Of a DNA stretch of 32,000 bases, positions 3,708-32,000 are shown piece after piece. Position 1 is the first letter of the stretch. Each line of letters begins with the position of its first letter. The notes under the pieces are model-generated. The model had not been told where the DNA came from, did not search any database, and saw nothing but the letters and a program-made list of their open reading frames with translations. The stretch is from Methylophaga frappieri (GTDB lineage: Bacteria; Pseudomonadota; Gammaproteobacteria; Nitrosococcales; Methylophagaceae): contig NC_017856.1 of the NCBI RefSeq assembly GCF_000260965.1, positions 360,001 to 392,000 of the forward strand, given 5' to 3'. The translations under genes and the position numbers were made by a program.

Positions 3708-3731
3708 TTCACTGAATAAGACGAATTTATT

Positions 3732-5651: not shown

Positions 5652-5666
5652 GATTAAGGAAACAAA

Positions 5667-6362: not shown

Positions 6363-6372
6363 GGGCAGCACT

Positions 6373-7642: not shown

Positions 7643-7648
7643 CCCGCC

Positions 7649-16462: not shown

Positions 16463-17164
16463 ATGACCGGATTTATCACACCCAATCCGCTGGAAAAACA
16501 GCTGAAAATCTTACCTGTAAACGCTGTTGCCGTTAATTTTGACACCGCACTTTATCACCGGGCGCTTTACACTGAAATGGGTATCCATTTTCCTGCCTCA
16601 TTACATGGTGCCGTTCAAAAACGACAGGCTGAATTTCTGGCCGGTCGATACGCTGCCCAATCAGCGCTAGCAATGATGGACATTACGAACCAATCCATCG
16701 CGATTGGTCAAAATCGCGCTCCAATCTGGCCACCGCATGTGATTGGCAGCATCACCCATGCCAATAATACGGCTATCTGTGTACTTGCTTATCAGATGGA
16801 TCTACTTTATCTCGGTATCGATCTGGAAAATATTGTTAGCGAAAAACTAGCGGGCGAATTAAAAAATAACATCATGGATACAAGTGAAAGACAGCTGTTA
16901 AAAAGCCTGAAAATACCTTTTGAGGAGGCTTTTAGCCTGGTTTTTTCTGCGAAAGAAAGCCTGTTTAAAGCACTGCACCCTTTTGTACAGCATTATTTTG
17001 AGTTCACGGCGGCACGTGTTGTGGCGCTTGATGCTAATACTGGTAGAATCGTATTGCAATTAACAGACACCCTGTCGGCCGATTTTCCAATTGACACTGA
17101 AATACATGGCCACTTTTTCCGTGTGAATCAACAAGTATTAACGGTGGTTTATCAGCTTCGTTAA
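16463..17164 (+). CDS. 4'-phosphopantetheinyl transferase, EntD/Sfp type
   Basis: 233 aa with PPTase motifs KRQAEFLAGRYAAQSAL, PIWPPHVIGSITHANNTAICV, LGIDLENIV and VFSAKESLFKAL. Adjacent to the NRPS locus. Confidence 0.8.
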   Translation: MTGFITPNPLEKQLKILPVNAVAVNFDTALYHRALYTEMGIHFPASLHGAVQKRQAEFLAGRYAAQSALAMMDITNQSIAIGQNRAPIWPPHVIGSITHANNTAICVLAYQMDLLYLGIDLENIVSEKLAGELKNNIMDTSERQLLKSLKIPFEEAFSLVFSAKESLFKALHPFVQHYFEFTAARVVALDANTGRIVLQLTDTLSADFPIDTEIHGHFFRVNQQVLTVVYQLR

Positions 17165-17211: not shown

Positions 17212-18534
17212 CTAAAATGCATAGCGGATAGCAAGTTCGACGAAATCATTATCTCGAAATGCCCCAATCCCCGTATCGGTATCACCACCAAAGGTCAGGC
17301 TTTTGATATCCAGTGATAGATTGTCATTGACCTGATAATTAGCAAACACTTCCAGCACATATTGTGCATCCCGCGCCGTTTGGCCGCGGATACCCAGTTC
17401 AAGCGCATCCCGATAAAAACCATTGGTAATCGCAAAGGTCAGCCCATAGTCATCTTCAGTTTCGTCGTAGCCATCCCAATAAATCTGAATATTCACATAA
17501 AGATCGGTGAGAAAGGTTCTATCCCAGCCTGTGACAACTTGCGTTAACGATTCGGTTTGCCCATTGATTGTTGGAAAATCCGGCGTATGACTGAATTCGG
17601 CTCTCAAGGTATTCTTGCCGATGCCAGAGGCCAGATTGATATTCCAGGTCTGAATTCGCTCGGGACGGAGCCAAATCCGGTTATCTTTATTCTCCAAAAC
17701 AATCGGTGCATCTGTATAACCATTGAAATAAGCCAATCCCCAGTCCAGTCCTTGGCCATAATGGGTAAAACGAATTCCTCCTTCATGAGGATGAGGATCG
17801 TCGATTTCTAACGCAATCTGTCCGTCTCGTTCCTGGCGACGTAATTGATTGATGAAAGGCATTTCCCATGGGCTGCCAAATTCAGCAAATTTTCGATCTC
17901 GTCCACGAGGTAACCAGACAGCTTCCCATATTCCCCAGTCTTGGTTATATTCAGTAAAAACCGCCCATGAAGGTCGTCGGGCAGAAGTCCGTCCATTACC
18001 GATTGGCTCTCGCATATCGACAGCATTGACCCTGTCAATGGTACTTCGGCCATCGGCAACGCCCCAGGCAATACGTTGTTTACCGATCATCAAGTCAAAC
18101 TGATCACCATCAAAAGAAAAATACGCTTCATTCAGATTAAACCGTTCAGCACTACGATAGTCGGTTGTAGCTGGGTCATACTCCATCTGGGCACTGGAAA
18201 AAAACAACCATTCGTCAGATTCATAACGTGTTTCCAGTTGCGTCAGCATCCGGTTCGATAACCAGTCACGCTGCGGCAATGCATAGCGGGAGCGCCATTC
18301 CAGATAGCCATTTACCTGCCAGTTTGTTTCAGTCGGCTCTGCTGACTCAGTCAAATCGAAATCAAACGGATCGGCTGCCTCCCCGGGACCTGCAGCAAAT
18401 GACGTCTTTGCTATCAACAGCAAGGCTGTCAACAATCCGGCAAAAGTCAGTTTAAGGCCGCTTCGAATATGATTGATATTTTGTTTGCCGGTATTAGCTG
18501 GCCATTGGCAATGCATCATCTGACGGATCATCAT
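17212..18534 (-). CDS. Predicted outer-membrane beta-barrel protein of unknown function (possibly DUF1302-like)
   Basis: 440 aa. Signal-like segment LKLTFAGLLTALLLIAKTSFAAG. Alternating hydrophobic beta-strand pattern rich in Y/W/G/D/N. C-terminal ...VELAIRYAF (terminal Phe, an OMP signature). No plug domain. Last gene of the minus-strand operon. The family call is tentative. Confidence 0.5.
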   Translation of the reverse strand: MMIRQMMHCQWPANTGKQNINHIRSGLKLTFAGLLTALLLIAKTSFAAGPGEAADPFDFDLTESAEPTETNWQVNGYLEWRSRYALPQRDWLSNRMLTQLETRYESDEWLFFSSAQMEYDPATTDYRSAERFNLNEAYFSFDGDQFDLMIGKQRIAWGVADGRSTIDRVNAVDMREPIGNGRTSARRPSWAVFTEYNQDWGIWEAVWLPRGRDRKFAEFGSPWEMPFINQLRRQERDGQIALEIDDPHPHEGGIRFTHYGQGLDWGLAYFNGYTDAPIVLENKDNRIWLRPERIQTWNINLASGIGKNTLRAEFSHTPDFPTINGQTESLTQVVTGWDRTFLTDLYVNIQIYWDGYDETEDDYGLTFAITNGFYRDALELGIRGQTARDAQYVLEVFANYQVNDNLSLDIKSLTFGGDTDTGIGAFRDNDFVELAIRYAF

Positions 18535-18548
18535 TTTCGCCGACTCAG

Positions 18549-19328
18549 CTAGCGTTTTAGTGCACTTTGCTGAAACAGACTGTCGTCCAGCCCCTGATTG
18601 TATTCAATATCCTGATATTGCATCAGGGTACGAGACGCTTTGCCATGGGTTTGCATAATCAGTTTGGTCGCTGTCCAAACACCATCAATCTCTTGAATAT
18701 CGCCTTGTATCATCGTTTTAAGCAGCCGACCACGTTTGTCGTAATACTCGACCTTATGTGCCAACCAGTGCTGTTTATCAATCCATATTTTTCGTTTGGC
18801 ATAGTTGGAAAAGCGTGCTTTGGCAGGAATGGGAACCGATTCTAAAAGATAACAGGCTCGCCCATCATGACAGTGCTCTGAGCCCAGCAAGGTATGGACG
18901 TCATCATCCACGGCCCGTTTTTCAATATCTTCATTGGCAAAGTCACTGCGCATAAACGCCCCTTTTTTACCACCGCCACTGATCCGTCGAACCAAATTCT
19001 CAGTCGGCAAATACAGCCAGAGATCATCTTCTTGGTCAACCGCGTTGTAGTTCCATGAGAGATATTGGGTATCCCGCACATCAGACGGCTCGTCAAAGCG
19101 GAATAAAGTACGATCATCGTCACCATATTTCTTTTCCCACATACGCATTTTCCGAACCAGTTTTTGGTTTCCGCGCTCAATGACCATAATGGCGTGACGA
19201 AAGCTGTCAGCAGCACTATCAGCCTGATCTGATCTCTGGGCAATATCACGGCCAGTCAACTCGGCGGCGATCGCGGCTGGCGTCATGTAAATAAAACAAC
19301 ATAAACTGAAAAAGAGACTTTTCATCAT
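18549..19328 (-). CDS. LolA-like 'outer membrane lipoprotein-sorting' family periplasmic protein
   Basis: Start chosen at MMKSLFFSLCCFIYMTPAAIA/AE (signal peptide, AGGA 5 nt upstream). The alternative ATG 19376 forms an ATGA overlap with the upstream gene. Family-typical core as I recall it: LTGRDIAQRSDQ....F......ERG......R.M..W.KKYGDD.RTLFRF.EP.DVRDT..L..........DLWLYLP....VRRISGGGKKGAFMRSDFANEDI. Confidence 0.65.
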   Translation of the reverse strand: MMKSLFFSLCCFIYMTPAAIAAELTGRDIAQRSDQADSAADSFRHAIMVIERGNQKLVRKMRMWEKKYGDDDRTLFRFDEPSDVRDTQYLSWNYNAVDQEDDLWLYLPTENLVRRISGGGKKGAFMRSDFANEDIEKRAVDDDVHTLLGSEHCHDGRACYLLESVPIPAKARFSNYAKRKIWIDKQHWLAHKVEYYDKRGRLLKTMIQGDIQEIDGVWTATKLIMQTHGKASRTLMQYQDIEYNQGLDDSLFQQSALKR

Positions 19329-19372
19329 TGATTCCTGTCTGGTTTCCAAAAAATAAAACGTGATCCCCGTTA

Positions 19373-21663
19373 TCATGCTGTCGGATCGAGTTGCTTTGAG
19401 GGCAAGGGTTTAAGCCAGCGCAACAGGATCGGTGCCAACATAAAGTCAGCGATTAACGCACTGATAAACGCCAGCCCGGTAGCCCAGGCAAATGTCTGTG
19501 GCCCCTGAAAATCGGATAGCAGAAAGCCGGAAAAACCGGCTGTTAACACCAAGGTTGTAAATAAAATGGCTCGACCAGTACTGCGCAGCGTTTTTTGATA
19601 GGCAAAGGCATGATCGGCTTCTTGATCAAAATGCTTTCGATAACGGAAAAAAAGTGAATGGTGTCATCGACCGCCACACCCAAAATCATCGGTGCCAAAA
19701 TTAACATCATGATGTTCACTTCAGCGCCGGCCCAACCTAGAACTCCCAGCGCCATGATCACCGGCAGCACATTTGGCACCATCGCGATCAAACCCAGCTT
19801 GATTGATCGTAGCACCAGAATCATCAACACCGTAATGGCCATAAATGCCAGCAAAAAACTGTGTAATTGTCCGGCAGCGATATGATCACCAAGTGCTCGA
19901 AACATCGCCAGTGTGCCGGTAAAGTGAATATTCAGATTGCTTAAATTGGCTTGCTGATAGGCCAAAATATCTGTTTCCAATTGCCGGATTTGTTGCAATC
20001 CCAGTGTTTTGGTTCTGACTTGAATACGTGCTTTATCGTAAGTAAAGCTGACGAACTGCTCCAATTGTTTGCCACCGCCAATTTCATAGAGCAATAAATA
20101 CTCAGCAATCTGAGAATCGGTCTCGGGCAAACGATAAAATACCGGCTTATTTTCATGAACAGCACGATGCATCTGCTTGAGCTGATCCACAATACTCGCG
20201 GTTTGCGCGACCAGCGGATGTTGTTCTAAATACTGTTGCAACTGATCCATATCATGGATTATCGATAAATCCTTGATACCTTCGGACTGACCAGTATCGA
20301 CAACGATTTCCAGGCTCATCACGCCACCCATCCGTTGCTCAACCTGTTCGAAAGATTGCCGCAGTGGATCGGAAACCGGTAAATCCCGCACCGTATTGGT
20401 CTCAATTTGTATCATCGTGATACCGTAAACCGCCATCGCAATCGCCACCGTAAAAATGCTGATAATCAGCCGGGGATAAAGGCCGACCCAGGTTGCAATT
20501 TTCAGTAGCAAGGTATCGTAAACATCCGATTTTGAAGGTGTATCCTCGTCAGCAATAGGCAATTTCCCAAATGACATGGCCGGCACAGCAAACAGAAACG
20601 TCAGCAAAAAAGCGATCCAGACACCAATCGCTGCTTGTGTACCCAACTCTTGAAGCTGTTTCAGATCTGTCGCCAGAAAGGCCAAAAAACCCGCCGCTGT
20701 TGTGACCGTCGTCAACAGGATCGGCATACTGACTCTGGACAATACCTGTTTTAATACCGCGCTTCGTGAGGGTTGACCTGCGACATGATTTTTCATTTCT
20801 GCCACAACGTGAACGGTATCACCGATGCCCACGCAAACCAGCAACGTTGGCACCATCACCGCCATCATATTTAACGAATAGCCAATGGTCGCTACCATAG
20901 CCAAGGTCCATATCACACTCAGCACAACCGTTGCCGCCGGAACCAGCACACCGCGCACTGAACGTGTAGTCAACCCTAACAGCAGGCAAACGCCAAGTAA
21001 TGATGCGCCGACCCAGATCGGGCCTTCCTTTTCTGTTTTGCCATCAATGTAAGCATTCATGACCGGAATACCAACCACATGGGCATCCAGCTCAGGAAAG
21101 TCGGCCAGTATCGCATTCACCACTGGCGGACTCTCTTTACGTGGATTGGTACCGGAATCCGGATAGTTTTCAAATTCCAGCAAGATGCCCAGTGTCTGCC
21201 CATCTGCCGAAATCAGCCGATTACGGTATGCCGGGTCATTTACCGCATGCTGGATCTGCTGTTGAATCTCTGCCGAGCTCATCCCCATGGATAACAGCTC
21301 GGCAATTTCAATGCCGCCAGGAACGCCAGTAATGGATTCAACATTACCAATCCAGGTAAGGTCGCTCAAATGCGGTACTTCCAGTTCCAGACGATCAACC
21401 AGTTCGCCTGCACTTGCCAGTTTTTCGCTATCAACAGGTTGATCATCAGCTATCAGAATAAAAATGAAGTCATCATTACCAAATGTTTGTTTAAAAGCAT
21501 CCAGTTGAACACGGGTTTGATCGCTGCTCAAAAAAAAGCTTTCATTGGAATTATCTACTTTCAGGTTCGCCAATTGGTTAAAGGCCGCCAAGGTAACCAG
21601 CCCTACCAAAATCAAACACCAGACCCGATAACGCAAGATGGTCTCAATGATGCGTGCTTGCAT
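19373..21663 (-). pseudogene. COG1033/MMPL-like RND-superfamily exporter, interrupted by a 1-nt frameshift in a homopolymer
   Basis: The 706-aa ORF (19543-21663) has TM1, a large periplasmic loop, a TM bundle, a second loop and ...PMILGVAVDDTIHFF. It then decays into non-homologous sequence. Shifting frame at the A7 run (19647-19653, T7 on the coding strand) gives FFRYRKHFDQEADHAFAYQKTLRSTGRAILFTTLVLTAGFSGFLLSDFQGPQTFAWATGLAFISALIADFMLAPILLRWL...*. This is the expected RND C-terminus. It ends in a TGA (19375-19373) that overlaps ATG 19376 of the next ORF. The span is 2291 nt, so one extra base restores a 763-codon gene. Confidence 0.75.
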
Positions 21664-21687
21664 GAATTAATTTTCCTTCGACAGTGC

Positions 21688-23445
21688 CTATTTATCGGCC
21701 GACTGAGATTGCCAAAGCTGATAATACAAGCCCTGACGCTGCAATAATGACTGGTGATTGCCTTGTTCAACGATGCGTCCTTTATCCATCACCAAAATCT
21801 GATCGGCATTTCTGACGGTACTTAACCGATGCGCTACCATGATGACTACGCGACCGACGACTAAACGATTTAACGCATTTTGAATGGCATGTTGGGCACT
21901 GGCGTCCACCGCCGCAGTAGCCTCATCCAATAACAAAACAGGTGCATCTTTAAGTAAAGCACGTGCGATGGAAAGACGCTGACGCTCTCCCCCCGATAAA
22001 CGCATCCCACCCTCGCCAACGCGCGTTTCATATTGCTCGGGCAGCCCCATGATGAAATCATGACAACTGGCTGATTGGCAGGCCGCCATGATCTGCGCAT
22101 CGGAAGCGTCGGGCCGACCAATACGAATATTTTCTCGAATACTGCCATCGAAAAGCTGTACATGCTGAAACACGGTGCTGATATGTTGATATACCCCATC
22201 GGTACCGATTGCCCTGAGATCCTCGTCACCTATCGTGACGCTACCCGACTGCGGGTCATAAAACCGTGCCAGCAAATTCAGTACCGTGCTTTTACCCGCA
22301 CCAGAAGGGCCCACTATTGCCGTAATGCTGTTTTGGGGAACGGAAAAACAGATGTCCTGCAAACTGCTTTGCTGGTCATAACTGAAACAGACATGGTCAA
22401 AACGAATCGCGAAATGCGAAGGCGTAACCGGCACAGCTGGCTCTGATAACTGCGTCGTGCTGAACAATGTTTCGATTTTGACTTCACTTTGTAATGCATG
22501 ACGCAGAATGGTCAGATAACCCGACATTTCCAATAACGGCTCAAGCAGTTTATGGGCCAATAACAAAAACAAAAGCCAGCTCGCCATCACTGTGGCTGTA
22601 GACTGACTTGGCAACATTTGACTGGCACACACTAACAACAACGCAACCAGCCCCAGCTCCAGCATTAAACGATAAACAACGACCGGGCCTGCTCCCCACG
22701 TTTCCACGCGAACACTGCTTTGGCGTAATAAATCAAACTGCTGATTCAGGCGGCTTAACCAGATACCGGTTCGATTAAACAAACGCAATGTCCGAATGCC
22801 GGAAACGAACTCGACAACCACGCCTGCCGTTTCCTGAAATCGTGTTTGCCTTTGCTGTCCAACGCGTTCAAAAAAACGCTTGGCTGCATTTAATATCCAA
22901 CACGCAAACGGCAAACCGACAATTAATGCCGTTGCCAGTTGCCAATCCAAATACAGTAACACCACAAACCACAATACCGGCGTAACACCAGCAGCAAAGA
23001 CATCGGCAGCAACATGGGTAAAGATACCCTCCACCCGTTTGATATCATCCGTCAAAATATCGGCCAACTGTCCGGTGCGATAATGATAAAGCTGACCCAG
23101 TGGCAATTGCCGAACACGATCAATCAATCGGGCGCGATAGCTTTGCATGATGTGATAGCTACCCATAAAGCTGTGGTGTTGCCCCCGCCAGGAACATAAT
23201 AACTGCCCCATGAAAATGGCCAGCAGCAGGCCGGCAATCCCCCAAACCGTCTGCCCGTCCGCAACGGCATTGCCATTGAGTACATTGATTAGCCAAAAAT
23301 AACACACCAGTAACGGCAAAATTTCAAAGCAGCGTTCCAATACTCTCAGACACAGCCCCCAATAAAACTCGCCCGCAGAACAATCACTACGACGAATGAC
23401 ACGCCGAATACTTTGCAAAATGCCGGTCTGATTCTCCTTAGCCAT
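21688..23445 (-). CDS. ABC transporter, fused permease/ATPase (exporter fold), YbtQ/IrtB-like
   Basis: Start trimmed to ATG 23445 (MAKENQTGILQ...), overlapping the upstream gene's end by 8 nt. Six-TM domain, then Walker A GPSGAGKST, signature LSGGERQRLSIARA, Walker B VLLLDEAT and H-loop MVAHRLS. Confidence 0.85.
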   Translation of the reverse strand: MAKENQTGILQSIRRVIRRSDCSAGEFYWGLCLRVLERCFEILPLLVCYFWLINVLNGNAVADGQTVWGIAGLLLAIFMGQLLCSWRGQHHSFMGSYHIMQSYRARLIDRVRQLPLGQLYHYRTGQLADILTDDIKRVEGIFTHVAADVFAAGVTPVLWFVVLLYLDWQLATALIVGLPFACWILNAAKRFFERVGQQRQTRFQETAGVVVEFVSGIRTLRLFNRTGIWLSRLNQQFDLLRQSSVRVETWGAGPVVVYRLMLELGLVALLLVCASQMLPSQSTATVMASWLLFLLLAHKLLEPLLEMSGYLTILRHALQSEVKIETLFSTTQLSEPAVPVTPSHFAIRFDHVCFSYDQQSSLQDICFSVPQNSITAIVGPSGAGKSTVLNLLARFYDPQSGSVTIGDEDLRAIGTDGVYQHISTVFQHVQLFDGSIRENIRIGRPDASDAQIMAACQSASCHDFIMGLPEQYETRVGEGGMRLSGGERQRLSIARALLKDAPVLLLDEATAAVDASAQHAIQNALNRLVVGRVVIMVAHRLSTVRNADQILVMDKGRIVEQGNHQSLLQRQGLYYQLWQSQSADK

Positions 23446-25225
23446 ATTGCGCTCCCGACGACCCGTTGACAGGCACGCCAATTGACCAGCTTTCCGTGTT
23501 TTGTTGCCACTGCCACTGTTGTTGGTAATAAGCATTGCTCTGCAACAAGGTACTGTGCGTGCCACAGGCCTGAATTTCGCCCTGTTCGATGATAACGATC
23601 TGATCCGCATCCTCACGTCCCTGGCTACGATGCGCAATAATTAGGAAAGTTTTGTCCGGATAATGCGTTTTAAGTCCCTGATAAAAGGCCCGTTGCGTTT
23701 GGTTATCCAGGGAGGCAGTCGCTTCATCAAGCACCACAATTGGCGTATCAGCCAACAGCGCCCGGGCAATGGCAATACGTTGCCTTTCACCTCCTGAAAG
23801 CCGGATCCCTTGCTCCGCAACCAAGGTGTCATATCCATCAGGCAGGCTGGCAATCAGCGTTTCAGCCTGAGCAGCGCCAATAGCCGTCGCAATTTCTGTC
23901 TTGCTGGCATGGGGACTACCCAGTCGCAGGTTGTCAATTATCGAGCCTTTAAATAAAAAGACCTCCTGACTGGCGACCGCGATGAGCGCAGCACGCTGCT
24001 GCTGAGAAAGCGTAGACAGTGACGTCCCGTTAATGAGAATCCTGCCCGAATTGGGCAGCAGTAATCCACCCAATAACTGTGCCAAGGTAGATTTACCAGC
24101 ACCGGATGGTCCCAAAATGACGGTATGACTACCTGCTACGAAGGTCAGATCAATCTCTTTGAGTATTGAACGCAGACCATAGCGGAAACTGACCCGTTCA
24201 AAAATAAGGGTGACGGGCTGTTGAATATCAACCGGTTGACCAGCCTGCTCCGGCGTCAAATCCAGTATCGGCTGCAAATGTTGTATACCGGCCAATACTT
24301 CATTGATCTCCATAAAGAAACGACTGACTTTAAGCAGTGGCTTCAACATGCCTGATCCCAGGATAACTACCATAATTATCTGAGATAAGGTCACCTCAGA
24401 CGCGTTATAAAGTCCAATCCCGACCGGCAAAATAAACAAGACATTAGCCCCCAGCAGACTGGTGAATAAGGCCCAACCCGGTACGGTTTTCTGAGTCAGA
24501 TCGGTGATTAAATCGTAATAACATGCCAGCCGGTAACGCATGACCTGAAAGGTGGAGGAATCCTGACGAAACATTTTCATGACCGGCATATTGCGCAGAT
24601 ATTCCACCGTCGCACTGCTTAGCCCGGCAGCAGTTTTGTTATGTTGCTCGTATTGGGCGCTGGTATCCCGCATAAACAAGGTGGAGGCCAATATGGCGAG
24701 TGGCACGACAGCCAGAGCGGCCAAGGCCAGACGCCAATCTATCCAAAATAAGAAAACCGTGACCAGCAGCGGACTTAGTAAAGCAGCAAAAACTTCAACG
24801 CTATGATGCGAAATGACCATCTCGACATTTTCAACGTCTTGTAAGACGGATTGTTTGAGCCGACCTGACGGATTTTTTTGCAACCAGGCCAGCGGGGCAT
24901 TGGCCAGCTGAGAGACGAGTTGCTTGCGGGTTCCGGCTAAAATTTTAAAAGCGGCCTGATGACTGAAAAAATAGGCCAATCCATACAAAACGGTTTTTAA
25001 AACCAATGCCACGGCCAGCCAGCCGGCCAACGACAAAAACTGTTGTGGTAAGTCAGCAGCTTGGTTGAGGATGGCGTCAATTGCCTGAAACAGGATCCAG
25101 TAAGGCAACAATTCACAAATAACGGCCAACGCAGTCAATAAAAGGGCAAAAAATAACTGTCCCTTTTGCGCGCCAGCCAATTTTAGCAGCGTTGGCCACC
25201 CCGTGCCCTCTGCTGATTTTTCCAT
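23438..25225 (-). CDS. ABC transporter, fused permease/ATPase (exporter fold), YbtP/IrtA-like
   Basis: 595 aa. Six-TM domain, then GPSGAGKST, LSGGERQRIAIARA, IVVLDEATASLD and IIAHR. First gene of the minus-strand operon that diverges from the NRPS genes. Confidence 0.85.
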   Translation of the reverse strand: MEKSAEGTGWPTLLKLAGAQKGQLFFALLLTALAVICELLPYWILFQAIDAILNQAADLPQQFLSLAGWLAVALVLKTVLYGLAYFFSHQAAFKILAGTRKQLVSQLANAPLAWLQKNPSGRLKQSVLQDVENVEMVISHHSVEVFAALLSPLLVTVFLFWIDWRLALAALAVVPLAILASTLFMRDTSAQYEQHNKTAAGLSSATVEYLRNMPVMKMFRQDSSTFQVMRYRLACYYDLITDLTQKTVPGWALFTSLLGANVLFILPVGIGLYNASEVTLSQIIMVVILGSGMLKPLLKVSRFFMEINEVLAGIQHLQPILDLTPEQAGQPVDIQQPVTLIFERVSFRYGLRSILKEIDLTFVAGSHTVILGPSGAGKSTLAQLLGGLLLPNSGRILINGTSLSTLSQQQRAALIAVASQEVFLFKGSIIDNLRLGSPHASKTEIATAIGAAQAETLIASLPDGYDTLVAEQGIRLSGGERQRIAIARALLADTPIVVLDEATASLDNQTQRAFYQGLKTHYPDKTFLIIAHRSQGREDADQIVIIEQGEIQACGTHSTLLQSNAYYQQQWQWQQNTESWSIGVPVNGSSGAQYG

Positions 25226-25458
25226 GCCTCACCTTCTTGCTGCTATCAACATTCCTAAACGGCGATTCTCACCCCGATTCAGATACCACTTTTATAACCG
25301 CAGGAATAGTAGCTGAAAGCCCATGACGATACTGCCCGAATCCGATGAATCCTCCCCCAATCTGATGATTATTCACGCATCATAAAAAACGGATAACTAC
25401 TGCACATTTCCACCGGAAAATCCGGATTCGGGTAATGCGATCCCGTTTCGGGTAGAGT

Positions 25459-25478
25459 TGAAAATAATTCTCATTCAA
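25459..25478. promoter_or_regulatory. Candidate Fur box in the divergent siderophore promoter region
   Basis: TGAAAAT-A-ATTCTCA matches the 7-1-7 Fur core TGATAAT-n-ATTATCA at 12/14, or about 12/19 against GATAATGATAATCATTATC. It overlaps a TTGAAA -35-like hexamer. A weaker site is at 25362-25381 (TGATGATTATTCA / reverse AATAATCATCA). Confidence 0.45.
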
Positions 25479-25620
25479 TATTCGCACACTTGCAAATTTC
25501 ATCTCGAAAAAATGCTTTCTATGTCTCTCTACAATTCGGGAAACCGCAGCTAATTAAAAGTAGGCCTTTGATTTAAAAAGACTTACATCCCATCTTAACT
25601 AAACTTCAGGGCGTTAAATT

Positions 25621-28600
25621 ATGGCATATACAGACTTTACAAACTGGCCCATGGATGACCGTCAAAAATATCTGCAAGCAGGCTACTGGTGCCCCGTCAC
25701 ATTAGGACAACAGCTAGCCAACTGGGCACAAAGATATGGCGATAAGACTGCATTGGTTGACGAAAAAGGCACACTTAGCTATCACGAGTTGACTATCCAG
25801 GCAGATCAGACTGCAGCCGGTTTTTATAATCTGGGAATCCGCCGGGACGATCGGGTTTTAGTACAACTTCCCAATTGCAACGAGTTTGTTGTGACTTGTT
25901 TTGCTTTATTTCGCCTTGGCGCACTACCGATCCTGACAATGCCTGCCCAGCGTGAGAATGATATTTCCGCACTCACCGAACTGGCTGAACCCGTTGCCTA
26001 TATTGTGGCTGATAATTTCCTCGGGTTTGACTACCTTACGCTTGCCGAGAAGATGCAGCAGAAGCATGCCTGTTTAAAGCAGGTGATTGTCGTTGGTCGT
26101 AATTCCGGTTCATTTATCCGATTCGATACCCTGCAACATGAACCGGTCACGCTTGCCGAACCTGAATTTAGTGACCCTGCACTACTATTACTTTCCGGTG
26201 GCACAACGGGTACCCCCAAACTCATTCCACGCACCCATGCTGACTACATCTACAATGCCACAGCTTCTGCCGAATTATGCGAATTATCGGAAGCAACTGT
26301 TTATCTGGCTGCCTTACCGGTAGCACATAATTTTCCGTTGGCCTGTCCCGGTATTCTCGGTACCTTAAACGCCGGTGGCAAAGTGGTCATGGCCAAAACA
26401 CCAGGCAATGACGAAACGTTTGATTTAATCGAACGCGAGAAAGTCACCATCACTGCCCTCGTACCACCTTTAGTACAACTCTGGATTTCTGCTCGTGAAT
26501 GGGACAACACGGATATTTCCAGCCTGCGTCTATTACAAGTTGGTGGCTCTCGTTGTGATGCCGATCTGGCAAAACAGGTTAGTCCCGTGCTCGGCTGTCA
26601 ACTGCAACAAGTCTTTGGCATGGCTGAGGGATTACTTTGCTATACCCGTCTTGATGATCCTGACGACGTCATTATCAATTCGCAAGGCCGACCACTTTGT
26701 CCTGATGATGAACTGCGCATTGTTGATCAGAATGGCTTATCAGTCGCACCGGGCGATGTTGGTGAACTCCATACAAAAGGCCCATACACCTTGCGTGGTT
26801 ATTATCGGGCAGTCGAACACAATGCCTCGACATTTACCAACGATGGCTTTTATCAATCCGGAGACCTCGTTCGCATGACAGAACAAGGGAATCTTATTGT
26901 TGAGGGCCGAATCAAGGAACAAATTAATCGTGCGGGAGAAAAAATCGCTGTTGCTGAAGTTGAACATTTACTGAATCAGCATCCTGAAATTGAAAAATCT
27001 GTGTTGATTCCAGTGCCGGATAGGCATCTGGGCGAACGAAGCTGTGCGTTTATTATTACCGGTTCATCTCCATTAACCTTACAAGCCGTGCATCAATTTC
27101 TGGCTGACAAAGGCTTACCGCGATACAAATTGCCCGATCAATTAGTGCCTGTAACGAGCTGGCCACTCACCGCCGTCGGCAAAATTGATAAAAAGCGACT
27201 TCTTGTCCAAGCTGAAGAAGCCGCCGCAACACAACCTGTAACGCTGTCCACAAAAAACTATGCTGAGAACCGAATTAAGGTGAAAAGCGATCCGCTGGAT
27301 CTGGCCATGAAACTGGCTCGCTGTGGACTATCAGAAGATTATGTCATCTACGAAAAAGACACTGAATGGTCAATTGGTATCGGTAAATATGCCTCTATTA
27401 CAGGCGATAAAAACCAGGCAACAATGCGCTGTGGTGAGCAAAAAGAAATTTTTCAAAAACCACAACTAACTGCTGCTATCCATCAGGCAATGCAGGTGAT
27501 TCCGGTTCATGACTGGCGTGCCTATGGTTCAGCCAAGTTTGAGCTCTCTCATTTGTTTTACGGTATTCCCATGCAGCAGGACTCGGGAAACACACCTTTA
27601 CTGGATGTCTTTATTCCTCGTTACGAAATTCGTTTCAATCAAGGTGAAGCATTATTACGCACTATCGAAACCGCACAGTTGGACAAACTGGTGCTACTGG
27701 TTCAGCAACTCGATGAACAACCCACCGCCGACAAGACTCAAGGCAAGCCTGTTTTTGCTGACATCGAAAATCATCAATCGGCAGTCTATCAGGACAATGT
27801 CCAAAAAGCCGTTGAGGAAATCAAAGCCAATCAATACCAAAAAGTGATTCTTTCAAGACGAATTCCTCTGCCAAGTGATGTTGATATTATCGAAAGTTTT
27901 CGCATTGGCCGGCGAATGAATACACCGGCAAGAGCCTTCTTGGCTAATTACAGCGGTGTGCAACTTGCTGGATTCAGTCCCGAAACTGTGGTTGAAGTCT
28001 CTTCTGATGGCTGGGTGAGTACTCAACCGCTTGCCGGAACACGATCACTAGGAGACACTCCTGAGCAAGAACAGCAACTTCGTCAGGAATTGCTCAGCGA
28101 TACCAAGGAAATCGCGGAGCATGCGGCCTCAGTCAAACTTGCCCAGGAAGAGTTGGAAACAATCTGTACGCCAGAAAGCATCAATGTAAGTGAGTTCATG
28201 GGTATTTCGCGACGCGGTAGCGTGCAACACCTGACATCGCGACTGAAAGGCAAGCTGAGTGAAGGCAAACATGCATGGGATGCTTTCGAAGCACTATTCC
28301 CTGCGGTAACTGCATCTGGTATTCCCAAAAAAGGGGCGCTCGATGCGATCCAGCGTCTGGAACCCATCCAACGCGATTGGTATAGCGGCTGTGTAATGAT
28401 TGTTGATGAAAATGGCGCCATGGATGCTGCATTGGTGCTGCGCAGTATTTATCAACAAGGTGATGCCTGCTGGCTACAAGCCGGTGCGGGCATTGTCGAC
28501 CAATCCAAACCCGAGCGTGAACTTCAGGAAACGGTTGAAAAACTGAGTTGCATATCTCAACACCTGGTGAGCCGGCAACCCTCAATTGAATCTGAGTCCA

Positions 28601-28626
28601 CAACGAAGTCGACGGAGGTTTTGTAA
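25621..28626 (+). CDS. Bifunctional fusion: aryl-acid (salicylate)-AMP ligase (EntE/YbtE/MbtA-like, aa 1-~530) plus salicylate synthase (Irp9/YbtS/MbtI-like, aa ~545-1001)
   Basis: A single uninterrupted 1001-aa ORF. N-terminal half: LLLSGGTTGTPKLIPRTHADY, ALPVAHNFPLACPG, QQVFGMAEGLLCYTRLDD, YQSGDLV, GRIKEQINRAGEKIAVAEVE, LPRYKLPD...TAVGKIDKKRL. C-terminal half (chorismate-utilising fold): PLAGTRSLG, DTKEIAEHAASV, RRGSVQHLTSRL.G.L, WDAFEALFPAVTASGIPK, RDWYSGCV, DAALVLRS, LQAGAGIVDQSKPERELQET.EKL. Confidence 0.85.
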   Translation: MAYTDFTNWPMDDRQKYLQAGYWCPVTLGQQLANWAQRYGDKTALVDEKGTLSYHELTIQADQTAAGFYNLGIRRDDRVLVQLPNCNEFVVTCFALFRLGALPILTMPAQRENDISALTELAEPVAYIVADNFLGFDYLTLAEKMQQKHACLKQVIVVGRNSGSFIRFDTLQHEPVTLAEPEFSDPALLLLSGGTTGTPKLIPRTHADYIYNATASAELCELSEATVYLAALPVAHNFPLACPGILGTLNAGGKVVMAKTPGNDETFDLIEREKVTITALVPPLVQLWISAREWDNTDISSLRLLQVGGSRCDADLAKQVSPVLGCQLQQVFGMAEGLLCYTRLDDPDDVIINSQGRPLCPDDELRIVDQNGLSVAPGDVGELHTKGPYTLRGYYRAVEHNASTFTNDGFYQSGDLVRMTEQGNLIVEGRIKEQINRAGEKIAVAEVEHLLNQHPEIEKSVLIPVPDRHLGERSCAFIITGSSPLTLQAVHQFLADKGLPRYKLPDQLVPVTSWPLTAVGKIDKKRLLVQAEEAAATQPVTLSTKNYAENRIKVKSDPLDLAMKLARCGLSEDYVIYEKDTEWSIGIGKYASITGDKNQATMRCGEQKEIFQKPQLTAAIHQAMQVIPVHDWRAYGSAKFELSHLFYGIPMQQDSGNTPLLDVFIPRYEIRFNQGEALLRTIETAQLDKLVLLVQQLDEQPTADKTQGKPVFADIENHQSAVYQDNVQKAVEEIKANQYQKVILSRRIPLPSDVDIIESFRIGRRMNTPARAFLANYSGVQLAGFSPETVVEVSSDGWVSTQPLAGTRSLGDTPEQEQQLRQELLSDTKEIAEHAASVKLAQEELETICTPESINVSEFMGISRRGSVQHLTSRLKGKLSEGKHAWDAFEALFPAVTASGIPKKGALDAIQRLEPIQRDWYSGCVMIVDENGAMDAALVLRSIYQQGDACWLQAGAGIVDQSKPERELQETVEKLSCISQHLVSRQPSIESESTTKSTEVL

Positions 28627-31600
28627 TGTCGATGAGCAACACTGCTCAAATGCTGGAGCCGTTGAGCCGGGAAGGTATCATTGCGCAACTTGAAACGCTG
28701 CTCAATCAAAAGCTCAATGAACACCACACCACCAACCTGATTGAACTGGGTCTCGATTCGCTGCAAATCATGCGCTTGGTCAATCATTGGCGGCGTGCCG
28801 GTGCCAAGGTTACCTTCGCCAAGCTTATTGAAAAACCAACCTTGGAAAACTGGTTACCATTACTAACGGCAGAACCCGCTAATAGTCCAACTTTAGAGTT
28901 TGATGACCTGGTAAAGCAGACGGCGGCCAATTACGACAGTGAGCAACCATTCGACTTAACGGATGTGCAATATGCATATTGGATAGGTCGTGGTGATGAT
29001 CAAGCACTTGGTGGTATCGGCTGTCATGCCTATCTTGAAATTGACTCACTTTACGCCCCTGTTGATCCAGTCCGTTTGCAACATGCTTGGCATCAGTTAA
29101 TCAGTCAACACAGCATGCTCCGGGCTCGCTTTACTGAAGATGGCAAGCAATTTGTCTCTGATGAAATGCCTCAACCTGCGTTAACAGTTCATGATTATCG
29201 TCACTTGTCTTCCAACGAAGCAGAGCAGCATGCTCAAGCTATTCGCTCGCGACTTTCACACCGCCGACTGGAAATTGACTTAGGTCAAGTGATGGGCTTG
29301 GAATTGACTCTGTTTCCCGATGCCAAATCACGTATCCACTTTGATATCGATTTGCTGGTTGCTGATGTGCAAAGTCTGCATATTTTACTGCGTGATTTAG
29401 CCACCGCTTATGCCTCGGATAACGCCCTTCCAGCCGATTCAGGTTGGCGCTTTGCTCACTATCTGGCCATAGAGAATAGTCGTAATTTAGATAAAATTCA
29501 GCAGGACAAACAATACTGGCAAAATCGCTTATCGGATTTACCAACAGGCCCACAACTACCTTTGGCAGTCGATCCTGCCACTATCCAACGTCCAGAATTT
29601 TCACGTCGAACCTACTTCCTGAAGCCTGAGCAATGGCAAGCTTTGCGTCAGTTCGCCGCTTCACAACAGGTAACGCCATCGATGGTTTTGGCCACCGCTT
29701 ATGCCGAAGTCTTATCGCGCTGGAGCGCCGAGCCACAATTCTTATTAAATATGCCGTTATTTGATCGACAGACCGATCATGCCGGTATCGATAATGTCGT
29801 TTCCGACTTCACTAATCTACTGCTATTACAATGTGATCACCGACAGCCAGCTACTTTCATCAATCGGGTTAAACAAATCCAGCAGCAATTTCACGCTGAT
29901 GTAGCGCATGCCAGTTATTCCGCTGTCAGCATTCAACGTGATTTAGTCAAACAAGGACTGACTGAAGGCGTTGCTGCACCGGTGGTATTTGCGTGTAACC
30001 TCGGCACACCGCTACTCACCGAGCAATGTCACACCAGTTTGGGTGATCTGCATTACATGATTTCACAAACGCCCCAAGTGTGGCTCGACCATCAACTTTA
30101 TGAAATGCATGATGGTTTGTTGCTTGCCTGGGATGCAGTCGATGCCTTGTTTCCTGCACAATTAATTGACGACATGTTCAGTGCCTATACGAACCTTCTC
30201 GAATGGTTAGCCGCTGATCGTCAGCATTGGCAACAAATACCGCCAGAATTAATGCCTGCTTATCAATTAACCACCCGCGAAGCAGTCAACCAAACCCAAG
30301 CCCCCATAATCGACCGGGTGTTGCATCAAGGTGTGTTTGAACACGCCAAACGCTCAGCAGACAAGGTAGCCCTTATCTCAGACAATGCGTCTGTCACTTA
30401 CGCTGCATTGGCCGATAAAGCCCTGCGTATCGCCCGTCTGTTACACGATAACGGTCTGCAATCCGGTGATCCCGTGGCAGTCACATTGCCAAGAGGCATT
30501 GACCAGATTGCCGCTGTATTGGGTATTTTGGCCGCAGGCGGTTGTTATGTGCCTGTCGGTATTCATCAACCCGCTGCTCGGCAGGCCAAAATCCATCACA
30601 CCGCTGGCATAAAACTAGTGTTAACGGCTTCCGATTATCTTGAGGTGGAGACCCTGGCCTCGGTCACGCGATTGGATGTGGCGCTAGCCCGTTCACTGTC
30701 GCCTTTGGCTGAACCGGTTTCGGTCTCGCCGCAGCAGGCGGCGTATATCATCTTTACTTCCGGTTCGACCGGTGAGCCTAAAGGTGTGGAGATGGCCCAT
30801 GCGGCTACCGCCAATACCATTGACCATTTAAATCAGCGTTATCAGGTGGGACAGCATAGTACAGGCCTTGCCATCTCGGCGCTCGATTTCGATTTGTCGG
30901 TCTACGATATCTTTGGCTTGTTACAGGTCGGTGGCGCGCTGGTGTTGGTAGATGAGTCTCAACGGCGGGATGCAAATGCCTGGTTGAGTTTGATTCATCA
31001 ACATCAGGTCACGCTCTGGAATAGTGTGCCGGTGTTGTTGGATATGTTGTTGGTGGTCGCACAGAACGATAGCCGTCAATTGCCGTTTGAGCAGGTGATG
31101 TTGTCGGGCGATTGGATTGGTTTGGATTTACCGCCTCGCCTATTGGCCACGACCCAAACGATGCCGGCATTTATTGCGATGGGCGGTGCCACGGAAGCGG
31201 CGATTTGGTCGAATGTGTTTGAGGTGAATACGGCGATGGAAGATGGCCACTTGCCTTCGCAGTGGACGTCAATTCCCTATGGGAAGCCGTTAGCCAATCA
31301 GGCTTATCGCGTGGTCGATAGTTTGGGACGTGATTGTCCGGACTGGGTGCCGGGTGAGTTATGGATTGGTGGCCTCGGTTTGGCTAACGGCTATCGCGGT
31401 GATGCGACGCTGACGGCAGAGCGGTTTGTTGAGGTGGCGGGCAAGCGTTGGTATCGCACGGGTGACCGGGGCCGTTATTGGCCTGATGGCAATCTGGAGT
31501 TTTTAGGTCGGATTGACCATCAGGTGAAAGTACGTGGTCACCGGATTGAGTTAGGTGAAATCGATGCGGCGATGGCGACACTCCCCGAGATTGCCAGAGC

Positions 31601-32000
31601 GGTGGCGGTAACAGTAGGACAGCCGCCGGCATTAGCGGCCGCGTTTGTGGCAAAAGCCTCTAACTCGCTCGATACGGATGCCATTCGACAGGCGTTACAG
31701 CAAATCTTACCGGATTATATGGTACCGCCTACTTTGGTGCAGATGGCGGATTTACCGCTCAGTGCCAATGGCAAGCTCGATAGAAAACAGCTCGCCGCTC
31801 TGCTTGTGGAGCAGGTCGCAACCACCGAACACATCATCACGCCACCACAGACCACAGCAGAAAAAGTGGTCGCTGAACTGTGGCAGTCATTACTCGGGAT
31901 TGCGTCGGTTGGAAGAGAAAGTAATTTCTTTACTTTAGGTGGTGATAGTTTATTGGCCACACAGGTGGTGGCACAGTTAAGACAGCAAGGCTTGAGTGCT
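28626..32000 (+). CDS. Non-ribosomal peptide synthetase, ArCP-Cy-A(Cys-like)-PCP..., 3' end beyond the window
   Basis: ATG 28626 overlaps the upstream TAA (TAATG). The frame is open to base 32000, so it is absent from the ORF track. ArCP: ELGLDSLQIMRL (Ser codon 28758-28760). Cy domain: FDLTDVQYAYWIGR and DIDLLVADVQS (DxxxxD at 29349-29366, replacing HHxxxDG). A domain: YIIFTSGSTGEPKGV (from 30744), ALDFDLSVYDIF, MGGATEAAIW, YRTGDRGRY, GRIDHQVKVRGHRIELGEI, NGKLDRK. PCP: FFTLGGDSLLATQ (Ser codon 31947-31949). Confidence 0.9.
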   Translation, partial: MSMSNTAQMLEPLSREGIIAQLETLLNQKLNEHHTTNLIELGLDSLQIMRLVNHWRRAGAKVTFAKLIEKPTLENWLPLLTAEPANSPTLEFDDLVKQTAANYDSEQPFDLTDVQYAYWIGRGDDQALGGIGCHAYLEIDSLYAPVDPVRLQHAWHQLISQHSMLRARFTEDGKQFVSDEMPQPALTVHDYRHLSSNEAEQHAQAIRSRLSHRRLEIDLGQVMGLELTLFPDAKSRIHFDIDLLVADVQSLHILLRDLATAYASDNALPADSGWRFAHYLAIENSRNLDKIQQDKQYWQNRLSDLPTGPQLPLAVDPATIQRPEFSRRTYFLKPEQWQALRQFAASQQVTPSMVLATAYAEVLSRWSAEPQFLLNMPLFDRQTDHAGIDNVVSDFTNLLLLQCDHRQPATFINRVKQIQQQFHADVAHASYSAVSIQRDLVKQGLTEGVAAPVVFACNLGTPLLTEQCHTSLGDLHYMISQTPQVWLDHQLYEMHDGLLLAWDAVDALFPAQLIDDMFSAYTNLLEWLAADRQHWQQIPPELMPAYQLTTREAVNQTQAPIIDRVLHQGVFEHAKRSADKVALISDNASVTYAALADKALRIARLLHDNGLQSGDPVAVTLPRGIDQIAAVLGILAAGGCYVPVGIHQPAARQAKIHHTAGIKLVLTASDYLEVETLASVTRLDVALARSLSPLAEPVSVSPQQAAYIIFTSGSTGEPKGVEMAHAATANTIDHLNQRYQVGQHSTGLAISALDFDLSVYDIFGLLQVGGALVLVDESQRRDANAWLSLIHQHQVTLWNSVPVLLDMLLVVAQNDSRQLPFEQVMLSGDWIGLDLPPRLLATTQTMPAFIAMGGATEAAIWSNVFEVNTAMEDGHLPSQWTSIPYGKPLANQAYRVVDSLGRDCPDWVPGELWIGGLGLANGYRGDATLTAERFVEVAGKRWYRTGDRGRYWPDGNLEFLGRIDHQVKVRGHRIELGEIDAAMATLPEIARAVAVTVGQPPALAAAFVAKASNSLDTDAIRQALQQILPDYMVPPTLVQMADLPLSANGKLDRKQLAALLVEQVATTEHIITPPQTTAEKVVAELWQSLLGIASVGRESNFFTLGGDSLLATQVVAQLRQQGLSA

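Follow-up and report, generated by a model that had tools for sequence, protein, structure and literature searches.

Methylophaga frappieri carries, within the 32,000-nucleotide window analysed here (contig NC_017856.1, positions 360,001 to 392,000), a unit of five genes at 17212-25225 that encodes two half-transporters of the ATP-binding cassette (ABC) type and, behind them, a trio composed of a resistance-nodulation-division (RND) pump, a LolA-like periplasmic protein and an outer-membrane beta-barrel. The unit is situated in a siderophore cluster of the salicylate-nonribosomal peptide synthetase (NRPS) kind. We give an even chance to the explanation that ferric siderophore is imported by the ABC pair and that export or recycling of the siderophore falls to the trio, for which we infer the cargo, the direction of transport, the hand-off between components and co-transcription. 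The siderophore link of the trio is real and recurrent, and what is new here is the context and the variant, the module family having been noticed previously and studied in part. The components of the unit are as follows.

23438-25225, minus strand: ABC1, 595 amino acids (aa), heading the five-gene unit; a fused permease-ATPase half-transporter of the YbtQ/IrtA/PchH type.
21688-23445, minus strand: ABC2, 585 aa from its ATG; the second half-transporter.
19373-21663, minus strand: RND pump, MMPL/HAE3-like, 762 aa once one T is removed.
19543-21663, minus strand: the RND open reading frame as sequenced, 706 aa.
19647-19653, minus strand: T7 homopolymer on the coding strand (A7 on the plus strand), the +1 frameshift site in the RND gene.
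18549-19376, minus strand: LolA-like open reading frame; the likely gene is 18549-19325, 258 aa.
17212-18534, minus strand: beta-barrel, 440 aa, DUF1302-related and porin-like; locus tag Q7C_378.

An earlier sequence-only reading of this DNA had placed the unit within a salicylate-NRPS cluster, and the flanking genes agree: because a phosphopantetheinyl transferase (PPTase) gene lies on one flank and the ligase/synthase and NRPS genes on the other, the five genes are inside the cluster and not beside it. The framing features are the following.

25226-25620, no strand: divergent control region, common to the five-gene unit and the salicylate/NRPS genes.
16463-17164, plus strand: EntD-type PPTase, convergent with the barrel gene, at the outer limit of the cluster scaffold.
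25621-28626, plus strand: salicyl-AMP ligase/salicylate synthase fusion, 1001 aa, heading the divergent biosynthetic operon.
28596-32000, plus strand: NRPS, ArCP-Cy-A-PCP, which continues past the window end.

The PPTase contains the Pfam families 4PPT_N and ACPS and matches the NCBIfam EntD model at E 2e-34, under its cut-off, and TIGR03494 recognises the salicylate synthase domain at 478 bits (cut-off 325). The NRPS, starting at 28596, shows PP-binding, Condensation and AMP-binding domains by Pfam, and its Cy region is 66-69% identical to those of two orthologous scaffolds that were recovered, a metagenome contig (L086) and Psychromonas hadalis (L087). In both scaffolds a fused ligase/synthase gene and a Cy-NRPS gene diverge from an ABC1-ABC2 pair (55-58% identity), and the ligase, salicylate synthase, Cy and A regions are 59-70% identical to those of the window. 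Fusion of ligase and salicylate synthase into a protein of about 1000 aa is seen across this cluster family, in the window, in L086 (2116-5109, 997 aa) and in L087 (4844-7865), the fused gene of P. hadalis being called in two pieces of 269 aa and 745 aa.

ABC1 and ABC2, the products of adjacent genes, each consist of an N-terminal six-helix ABC_membrane domain and a C-terminal ABC_tran domain (Pfam). The top half-transporter matches of ABC1 on the PDB are YbtP (6P6I_A, E 6e-77), YbtQ and IrtA, with single-stretch scores of 263 and 238 bits to YbtP and YbtQ and 230 bits to IrtA. Those of ABC2 are 6P6I_A (E 1.5e-88) and YbtQ (2e-85), then IrtA and IrtB; its single-stretch scores of 301 and 291 bits to YbtP and YbtQ, against 259 for BmrA and 252 for MsbA, leave a modest margin. 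These matches uphold the proposed likeness of the pair to YbtPQ and IrtAB. ABC1 is 66%, 58% and 56% identical to the first ABC gene product of L088 (a Tara Oceans contig), L086 and L087, respectively, all of which are orthologous loci, and the nearest homologues of ABC2 (50-64% identical) include proteins from P. hadalis, Photobacterium, Aeromonas, Vibrio, Pseudomonas aeruginosa and Burkholderia, some of which are labelled ‘IrtB/YbtQ’ by JGI. By homology, the pair would import ferric siderophore across the inner membrane; it is read as a system of uptake rather than export because YbtPQ and IrtAB are deposited as importers.

The association of the trio with iron acquisition extends far beyond this window. 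A LolA-like alignment was scanned against one genome per GTDB species, giving 486 relatives from which the 80 best loci were kept; their neighbourhoods were scored by tblastn, and the 43 of these 80 loci with at least 6 kb on both sides were counted. The full trio is found in 33 of the 43 survey loci and the barrel in 41, while nine include a pair of full-length YbtPQ-like half-transporters and 20 a TonB-dependent receptor. NRPS genes occur in 14, nine of which have a Cy domain at least 30% identical to that of the window. At least one iron-type neighbour (ABC pair, NRPS, TonB-dependent receptor, Fur or SIP) is present in 30 of the 43. The link between the trio and iron or siderophore genes recurs in at least five separate settings: Methylophaga with its Tara relative, the Succinivibrionaceae, the Desulfovibrionaceae with other Desulfobacterota, the Chromatiaceae, and marine Pseudomonadales. 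The neighbourhood survey that the sequence-only reading had proposed thus finds the trio recurrently linked to siderophore or iron genes in several phyla.

Individual loci illustrate the range of these contexts. In Desulfovibrio piger (L072), genes for a polyketide synthase-NRPS (PKS-NRPS) with a Cy domain and terminal thioesterase (TE), a type II thioesterase, the MMPL pump, the LolA-like protein, the barrel, an LCM-type methyltransferase and a PPTase follow one another on one strand, and no importer lies within 10 kb. Ruminobacter amylophilus (L045) encodes a Cy-NRPS (47%), an ECF-type transporter and an aryl-AMP ligase (47%) with the LolA-like protein and the barrel; across the Ruminobacter and Succinimonas loci, which likewise have LolA-like protein and barrel, the aryl-AMP ligases are 46-49% and the Cy-NRPSs 47-51% identical to those of the window. 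As read by Pfam, the ECF-type transporter of L045 (Trep_Strep, CbiQ and a double ATPase) lies beside the LolA-like and barrel genes at 2319-9530. Desulfocarbo indianensis (L037) has, on one strand, a TonB-dependent receptor, an LCM methyltransferase, two ABC genes, the RND pump, the LolA-like protein and the barrel, and an AraC regulator gene convergent to them. By score, the ABC1 of this locus is nearer to YbtP (367 bits) and IrtA (327) than to MsbA (262), and on such scores the trio-linked ABC pairs are also YbtPQ/IrtAB-like. In a Pseudomonadales metagenome-assembled genome (MAG; L085), Fur, an ABC pair, a SIP ferric reductase and a TetR regulator accompany the trio.

A methyltransferase of the LCM family (PF04072) adjoins the trio in 10 of the 80 loci, in NRPS and non-NRPS contexts alike (L037 2964-3863, L072 12221-13069, L084 12036-12845 and seven more loci). 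The cargo might be its substrate, with methyl esterification as one possible modification.

Within the cluster family itself, the trio behaves as a separate piece. In P. hadalis, ABC2 directly abuts a convergent PPTase gene (product 40% identical to that of the window), and the 4.5-kb trio of the window sits exactly between ABC2 and the convergent PPTase; because ABC2 of P. hadalis runs straight into the PPTase gene, the trio is read as an insertion between the two. The trio is absent from both the L086 and L087 orthologous clusters. Had the trio been conserved here in relatives without the NRPS locus, this would have spoken against a siderophore role; what emerged instead were relatives with the NRPS scaffold and no trio. 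The Tara Oceans contig L088 carries ABC1 (66%) and ABC2 (64%) followed after 9 nt by the N-terminus of an RND pump (62%), and a second contig from the same Tara sample (L089) supplies an RND C-terminus (69%), a LolA-like protein (71%) and a barrel (61%). The ABC2-RND fusion is therefore no one-off and is kept in a second organism.

MAGs of marine Alpha- and Gammaproteobacteria hold the closest relatives of the trio, runs of MMPL, LolA-like and barrel genes, at identities of 53-56% for the RND pump, 57-65% for the LolA-like protein and 39-51% for the barrel; a TetR gene stands alongside in most and NRPS genes in none. In the closest stand-alone relatives (L084 6135-7567, L085 5590-7044, L005 and L061), the TetR gene has a Glyoxalase_3-family gene as its partner, divergent from the trio. 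The ABC pair of the window shares 55-66% identity with its counterparts in L086, L087 and L088, and only about 30-35% with trio-linked pairs elsewhere. A common origin of pair and trio as one five-gene module is rejected for the window, because its pair groups with those of the NRPS scaffolds and not with the trio-linked pairs. The best explanation of these sequence comparisons is that the unit consists of two modules with different histories, the trio being elsewhere a self-contained cassette, often beside a TetR gene. Most simply, the siderophore operon would have taken up this cassette, whose own regulator was lost. No Methylophaga appeared among the 80 best of the 486 LolA-like loci (identities to 31%), M. 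frappieri itself being outside the returned set; from this, the other Methylophaga species representatives seem to lack the trio, and probably the whole cluster as well.

A rival explanation is that the trio is a general efflux cassette for hydrophobes, solvents or envelope lipids, similar to AmeABCD or HpnN, which landed in the cluster by chance and has no tie to the siderophore. The stand-alone, TetR-linked and NRPS-free state of the closest relatives favours this, as does the association of larger DUF1302/DUF1329/RND systems with monoterpenes, hydrocarbons and pleiotropic envelope phenotypes, and two orthologous siderophore clusters (L086, L087) manage without a trio. A chance landing is nevertheless difficult to reconcile with retention of the ABC2-RND fusion at about 65% protein identity in a second organism, with independent recruitment of the trio into NRPS or PKS-NRPS clusters in the Desulfovibrionaceae and Succinivibrionaceae, or with the iron-type genes in 30 of the 43 assessable neighbourhoods. 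Moreover, some of the TetR-linked relatives are themselves beside Fur, SIP, ABC pairs or TonB-dependent receptors. We therefore regard a purely general efflux role as quite unlikely.

Profile searches with Pfam and NCBIfam upheld the proposed assignment of the unit's proteins to the ABC, MMPL, LolA_like and DUF1302 families, the DUF1302 match being partial. The RND pump matches MMPL (PF03176) in two stretches at 92.2 bits (gathering threshold 20.5), along with the sterol-sensing and Patched families of Pfam, and displays the motifs GIGDTVH and VDDTIH. Its top-scoring NCBIfam model is HAE3 (TIGR00921), which it matches at 134.7 bits as sequenced and 170.2 bits as repaired, short of the cut-off of 351.9; it is HAE3-like, but not an HAE3 member by the curated cut-off. 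The nearest solved structure is that of HpnN (5KHN, E 6e-11).

As sequenced, the RND frame is broken by one surplus T in the T7 run, four codons past the motif VDDTIHFF of transmembrane helix (TM) 10, and a tblastn search with a homologue (L001) switches frame at this run, 19647-19653. Deletion of one T gives a protein of 762 aa that aligns end to end with the 783-aa MMPL homologue of L001 at 54% identity, and at full length with MMPL homologues of 770-795 aa; the Tara relative L089 reads in a single frame through the corresponding region. Either the sequencing miscounted the run or the gene was inactivated very recently. Pyrosequencing is known to miscount homopolymers. A miscount is plausible here because the shift lies in a homopolymer and the genome of the sister strain JAM1 was pyrosequenced and later corrected (PMC5918138). 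The alternative, a genuine frameshift, would make the trio of M. frappieri JAM7 a decaying remnant, with a pump that lacks TM11-12 and a module that is defunct whatever its ancestral role. The position of the break, four codons past the TM10 motif, is consistent with such a loss. Against it, this is the sole lesion and it falls in a homopolymer, both parts of the RND gene are open and conserved (57% identity to the L001 homologue downstream of the shift), the LolA-like and barrel genes are intact, and the JAM1 genome needed correction (PMC5918138). Judged separately from the question of function, decay is a doubtful explanation, though a serious one.

The LolA-like protein matches PF17131 (LolA_like/TP_0789-like) at 209.4 bits (threshold 30) over profile positions 2-184 of 184, and has only a weak, partial match to DUF1329 (45 bits). 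Its structural matches are 4Z48 (E 2e-56, about 42% identity), 9TP6 (LolA3 of Porphyromonas gingivalis, 9e-40) and 3BK5. The first of these, deposited as an ‘uncharacterized protein’, is exactly the LolA-like protein of D. piger ATCC 29098 encoded in L072 (9974-10783). A Sec signal peptide, MMKSLFFSLCCFIYMTPAAIAA, begins at an ATG at 19325 with AGGA ahead of it, and the homologues are 254-260 aa in length, in keeping with the 258 aa of the identical protein in the public M. frappieri annotation. The homologue lengths, this annotation and the position of the signal peptide make a start at 19325, with a gap of 47 nt between the RND and LolA-like genes, the likelier arrangement. The N-terminus has no canonical lipobox, and the protein is predicted to be soluble in the periplasm. 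No lolCDE or lolB genes are found in the window.

The barrel matches DUF1302 (PF06980) at 40.1 bits (threshold 23.2), with the match confined to residues 121-196 and profile positions 133-215 of 541, and several of its homologues have no precomputed DUF1302 match; it is best described, from its sequence, as a short and divergent DUF1302 relative. It begins with a signal peptide and ends in ...RYAF. An AlphaFold2 model built with 42 homologues (pLDDT 85.7, pTM 0.76) predicts a plug-less, all-beta structure of roughly 18 strands. No TonB Plug or TonB_dep_Rec match was obtained in Pfam, and with no plug in either the scan or the model, a role as a TonB-dependent receptor is ruled out. A Foldseek search of the PDB returned no informative solved relative, only general porins: the top matches were the generic 16-strand porins OmpC, OmpF and OmpK36, with TM-scores of 0.43-0.55 and root-mean-square deviations of 7.5-10 Å. 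The barrel family is most conserved at about residues 150-190, in the part that matches DUF1302; here lies the conserved segment GKQR.AWG..DG.STIDRVNA.D.RDP, a candidate element for docking or constriction. Model confidence is lower over this stretch, which would be in keeping with a docking element or with a loop tucked into the lumen.

The five genes are real, with open reading frames at the coordinates given, and are tightly packed on the minus strand. Three of the junctions noted from the sequence alone were likewise seen: an 8-nt overlap, ATGGCTAA, between ABC1 and ABC2 (23438-23445), which recurs in the gene calls of L086, L087 and L088; a 24-nt gap containing AAGGA between ABC2 and the RND gene (21664-21687); and a 14-nt gap between the LolA-like and barrel genes (18535-18548). 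The fourth, an ATGA stop/start coupling of the RND and LolA-like genes at 19373-19376, stands in part, in that the tetramer is present and the LolA-like start is likelier to be 19325. The unit thus proceeds through an 8-nt overlap and gaps of 24, 47 and 14 nt. In a consensus scan, none of the four junctions had a site resembling a promoter or a terminator, and enrichment relative to shuffled sequence was seen for neither kind, so that the scan weighs neither for nor against internal signals. On this packing, the five genes are likely to form one operon.

A Fur box had been proposed in the divergent region, and this claim is weak. Within those 395 bp, the site closest to the 19-bp Escherichia coli Fur consensus (25460-25478) agrees with it at 13 of 19 positions, a score equalled or exceeded by 21 sites in the 32-kb window, and no site in the window comes within three mismatches of the consensus; at the aligned position, L086 and L087 have AT-rich sequence. 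The box is accordingly rejected as positive evidence. The window, L086, L087 and L088 share two GC-rich boxes in their divergent promoter regions (25332-25361 and 25421-25457 in the window; CTGCCCGAATCCGATGAATCCTCCCCCAAT, and CGGATTCGGG...CCCGTTTCGGGTAGAG), whose conservation is plainer than that of the Fur-like site. Just two copies of the 10-mer CCCGAATCCG exist in the window, at 25335 and 25423, inverted relative to each other. The boxes are candidate sites for a pathway-specific regulator, for example of the AraC/PchR/YbtA type. No homologues of TetR, SIP, Fur, LCM or AraC were found within the window.

Taken as a whole, the unit would function as follows. The ABC pair would bring ferric siderophore inward, by homology to YbtPQ and IrtAB, while the trio would form an envelope-spanning efflux route for a hydrophobic, salicyl-capped siderophore. 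The RND pump, driven by the proton motive force, would take the siderophore from the inner membrane or periplasm and hand it to the LolA-fold carrier, whose homologue bears a hydrophobic groove, and the carrier would deliver it to the barrel for release. The cargo could be new siderophore, siderophore recycled after removal of its iron, or both. Having been inserted between ABC2 and the PPTase gene in the M. frappieri lineage, with loss of a TetR-type regulator of its own, the trio would now stand behind the promoter region of the siderophore operon. Nothing in the sequence points to an acylated product, and the acylated cargo that had been entertained is unsupported.

Export is favoured on three grounds: the characterised RND/HAE3/MMPL relatives (AmeABCD, HpnN) export, the D. 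piger trio is inside a biosynthetic operon with no importer nearby, and co-encoded TonB-dependent receptors already cover import across the outer membrane. Several observations weigh against export, or against the wider explanation. Since L086 and L087 have no trio, it is dispensable for that siderophore class. The Fur-like site is weak and iron regulation of the unit is conjectural here; the RND gene is frameshifted as sequenced, and the pump may be dead in the M. frappieri strain. The survey counts are not independent events, because many of the loci come from related Desulfobacterota. The Succinivibrionaceae loci (L045, L033, L042, L052 and L080) keep the LolA-like protein and barrel with no RND gene within the flank, which, along with the ECF-type transporter of L045, suggests that the carrier-barrel pair can work with another inner-membrane partner. 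In L037, L084 and L085, the trio and a YbtPQ-like pair occur with no NRPS within 10 kb, and P. gingivalis, which has a similarly annotated operon, is described as a non-user of siderophores (PMC13227078). Because of these three loci and P. gingivalis, export of a self-made siderophore cannot be the sole or general role. Where no NRPS is nearby, the trio fits recycling or expulsion of iron-free or foreign siderophore, or uptake. Of the envelope-spanning export route first proposed, then, the recurrent siderophore link stands, and export of self-made siderophore as the only role does not. The homology of the P. gingivalis proteins PG1178-80 to those of the window would itself rest on annotation names and the 9TP6 (PGN0947) match.

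The same loci raise the prospect that the trio serves uptake, with a haem-like ligand or hydrophobic ferric chelate entering through the barrel independently of TonB, the LolA-fold protein ferrying it across the periplasm to the YbtPQ-type importer, and the RND pump as an accessory or receiver. Loci without an NRPS within 10 kb do combine the trio with ABC pairs of the importer type and a SIP ferric reductase, and the LolA-like protein and barrel of Ruminobacter are kept with no RND pump, beside an ECF-type transporter that resembles uptake systems. The similarly annotated operon is also induced by iron or haem limitation in P. gingivalis, where siderophore use is described as lacking. MmpL3 and MmpL11 are claimed to act in mycobacterial haem uptake, a precedent for an RND protein in such a role. 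Conversely, the characterised RND, HAE3 and MMPL pumps (AmeABCD, HpnN) export; a second way in through the outer membrane would be redundant, given that 20 of the 43 neighbourhoods hold a TonB-dependent receptor, which in L037 belongs to the same run of genes on one strand; and the D. piger trio occupies a biosynthetic operon with no importer within 10 kb. Uptake as the role of the trio is thus unlikely.

Elsewhere in the window, a plus-strand run at 1188-9604 encodes a TonB-dependent receptor, a phytase, ExbB, ExbD, TonB and a PhoX alkaline phosphatase. It looks like a TonB-powered locus for the acquisition of phytate or organophosphate, unrelated to the siderophore cluster.

Beyond this one locus, we tentatively suggest, with distinctly less than even confidence, that the trio is a widespread and as yet unrecognised Gram-negative machine which secretes and recycles hydrophobic metallophores and partners YbtPQ/IrtAB-type importers, much as MmpL4/5-MmpS4/5 does. 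Known siderophore export in Gram-negative bacteria is carried out by MFS, ABC or HAE1 RND pumps with TolC-type outer-membrane channels, and to our knowledge the exit and recycling of salicyl-thiazoline siderophores such as pyochelin and yersiniabactin from their producers are still unsettled. The trio offers a compact, three-gene candidate of different architecture, in which an RND pump is combined with a porin-like barrel and a soluble lipid-carrier fold; siderophore clusters have acquired it on several independent occasions, and it travels with YbtPQ-like importers. If the suggestion is true, lineages with the trio would have in it the exporter still missing for siderophores of the pyochelin and yersiniabactin classes, and the trio would explain the very strongly iron-induced operons of the PG1175-81 type in oral Bacteroidota; in these oral pathogens, the similarly annotated operon is among the most strongly iron-responsive loci. 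The siderophore context also supplies a concrete candidate ligand for two crystal structures with no assigned function, 4Z48 and 9TP6. Confirmation would join the iron stimulon of Bacteroidota, the DUF1302/LolA-like/HAE3 cassettes and the siderophore clusters under one function, and experimental handles exist in the two structures, in cultured carriers and in the strong iron regulation of the oral-pathogen operon.

Among known systems, lipoprotein sorting by LolA and LolB shares with the LolA-like protein its fold, an open beta-sheet with a hydrophobic groove. LolA3 of P. gingivalis has this groove; it differs from the sorting proteins in that it is without the Arg and Leu signature residues of LolA and LolB and does not bind LolB, and its authors concluded that its function is separate (PMC13103446). 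Because this homologue (9TP6) does not pair with LolB, a sorting role is argued against and a canonical Lol function for the window protein is unlikely; the window gene, moreover, is encoded with an RND pump and a barrel instead of LolCDE.

HpnN, an HAE3 protein (PDB 5KHN, 6WU0) and the nearest solved RND relative, is an exporter that carries hydrophobic lipid from the inner membrane towards the outer one. Its similarity to the window pump is confined to the TM/sterol-sensing-like region, and it works with no co-encoded periplasmic or outer-membrane partners (PMC6394551).

A parallel in composition is AmeABCD of Castellaniella defragrans, which consists of a DUF1302 protein (605 aa), a DUF1329 protein (451 aa), a COG4447 propeller and an HAE3 RND pump, and which provides monoterpene tolerance and contributes to the efflux of Nile Red (PMC6394551). 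Transposon cofitness data link the same four families (10.1101/072470). AmeABCD and the DUF1302/DUF1329/COG4447/COG1033 clusters of Shewanella and Pseudomonas share with the trio an HAE3-type RND pump, a periplasmic protein of the LolA superfamily and a DUF1302-family barrel, with no partner of the membrane fusion protein or TolC type, and the Ame experiments point to efflux of hydrophobic compounds. They differ in having four genes, among them a COG4447 beta-propeller that has no counterpart in the five-gene unit. AmeB is a DUF1329 protein of 451 aa, whereas the window protein is a PF17131 protein of 258 aa, and AmeA has 605 aa against the 440 aa of the partially matching barrel. The gene order is reversed, with the barrel first in ame, and the context is monoterpene catabolism rather than iron. 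With neither a COG4447/BNR gene nor a DUF1329 protein of about 450 aa, the five-gene unit falls outside the AmeABCD type.

In oral Bacteroidota, PG1175-PG1181 of P. gingivalis and its Prevotella counterparts (PMC10434189, PMC13096392, PMC11018363) share, by annotation, two ABC proteins, an MMPL protein, a LolA-like protein and a porin, and LolA3 (9TP6) matches the window protein at E 9e-40. Induction by iron or haem limitation is strong: PG1175-81 rises 13- to 136-fold under low iron, and three copies in Prevotella intermedia, each annotated TetR-ABC-ABC-MMPL-sorting protein-hypothetical, rise 40- to 223-fold (PMC10434189). PG1178-80 were in 2026 still counted among ‘uncharacterized transport systems’ (PMC13096392). 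These operons differ from the window in the presence of TetR and the absence of NRPS, in P. gingivalis in a bacterium described as not using siderophores. In the literature searched, no paper ties the RND/LolA-like/barrel module to siderophore clusters; the view that the module is uncharacterised holds to that extent and yields where its relative AmeABCD, already studied, and these iron-induced lookalikes are concerned.

YbtPQ of Yersinia and E. coli, PchHI of Pseudomonas and IrtAB are, as are ABC1 and ABC2, fused half-transporters, and the window pair has homologues at 49-56% identity in, for example, P. aeruginosa, Burkholderia, Vibrio and Psychromonas. Both orthologous contexts examined for the pair (L086, L087) are salicylate-NRPS clusters. 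We know of no characterised YbtPQ, PchHI or IrtAB locus that includes the RND/LolA-like/barrel trio.

In mycobacteria, a lipophilic salicyl-capped siderophore is exported by MmpL4/5-MmpS4/5, beside the ABC importer IrtAB. Common to the two systems are an MMPL-type RND pump beside an IrtAB-type pair, a salicylate synthase, an aryl ligase and an ArCP-Cy-A-PCP NRPS. ABC1 differs from IrtAB in having no SIP domain, and the window pump is closer to HAE3/HpnN than to the mycobacterial MmpLs (95 bits against TIGR00833, cut-off 875). In place of MmpS, the window has a LolA-fold protein and a beta-barrel, suited to the Gram-negative envelope, and the trio would thus be an analogue of MmpL4/5-MmpS4/5 with IrtAB that is built from unrelated periplasmic and outer-membrane parts.

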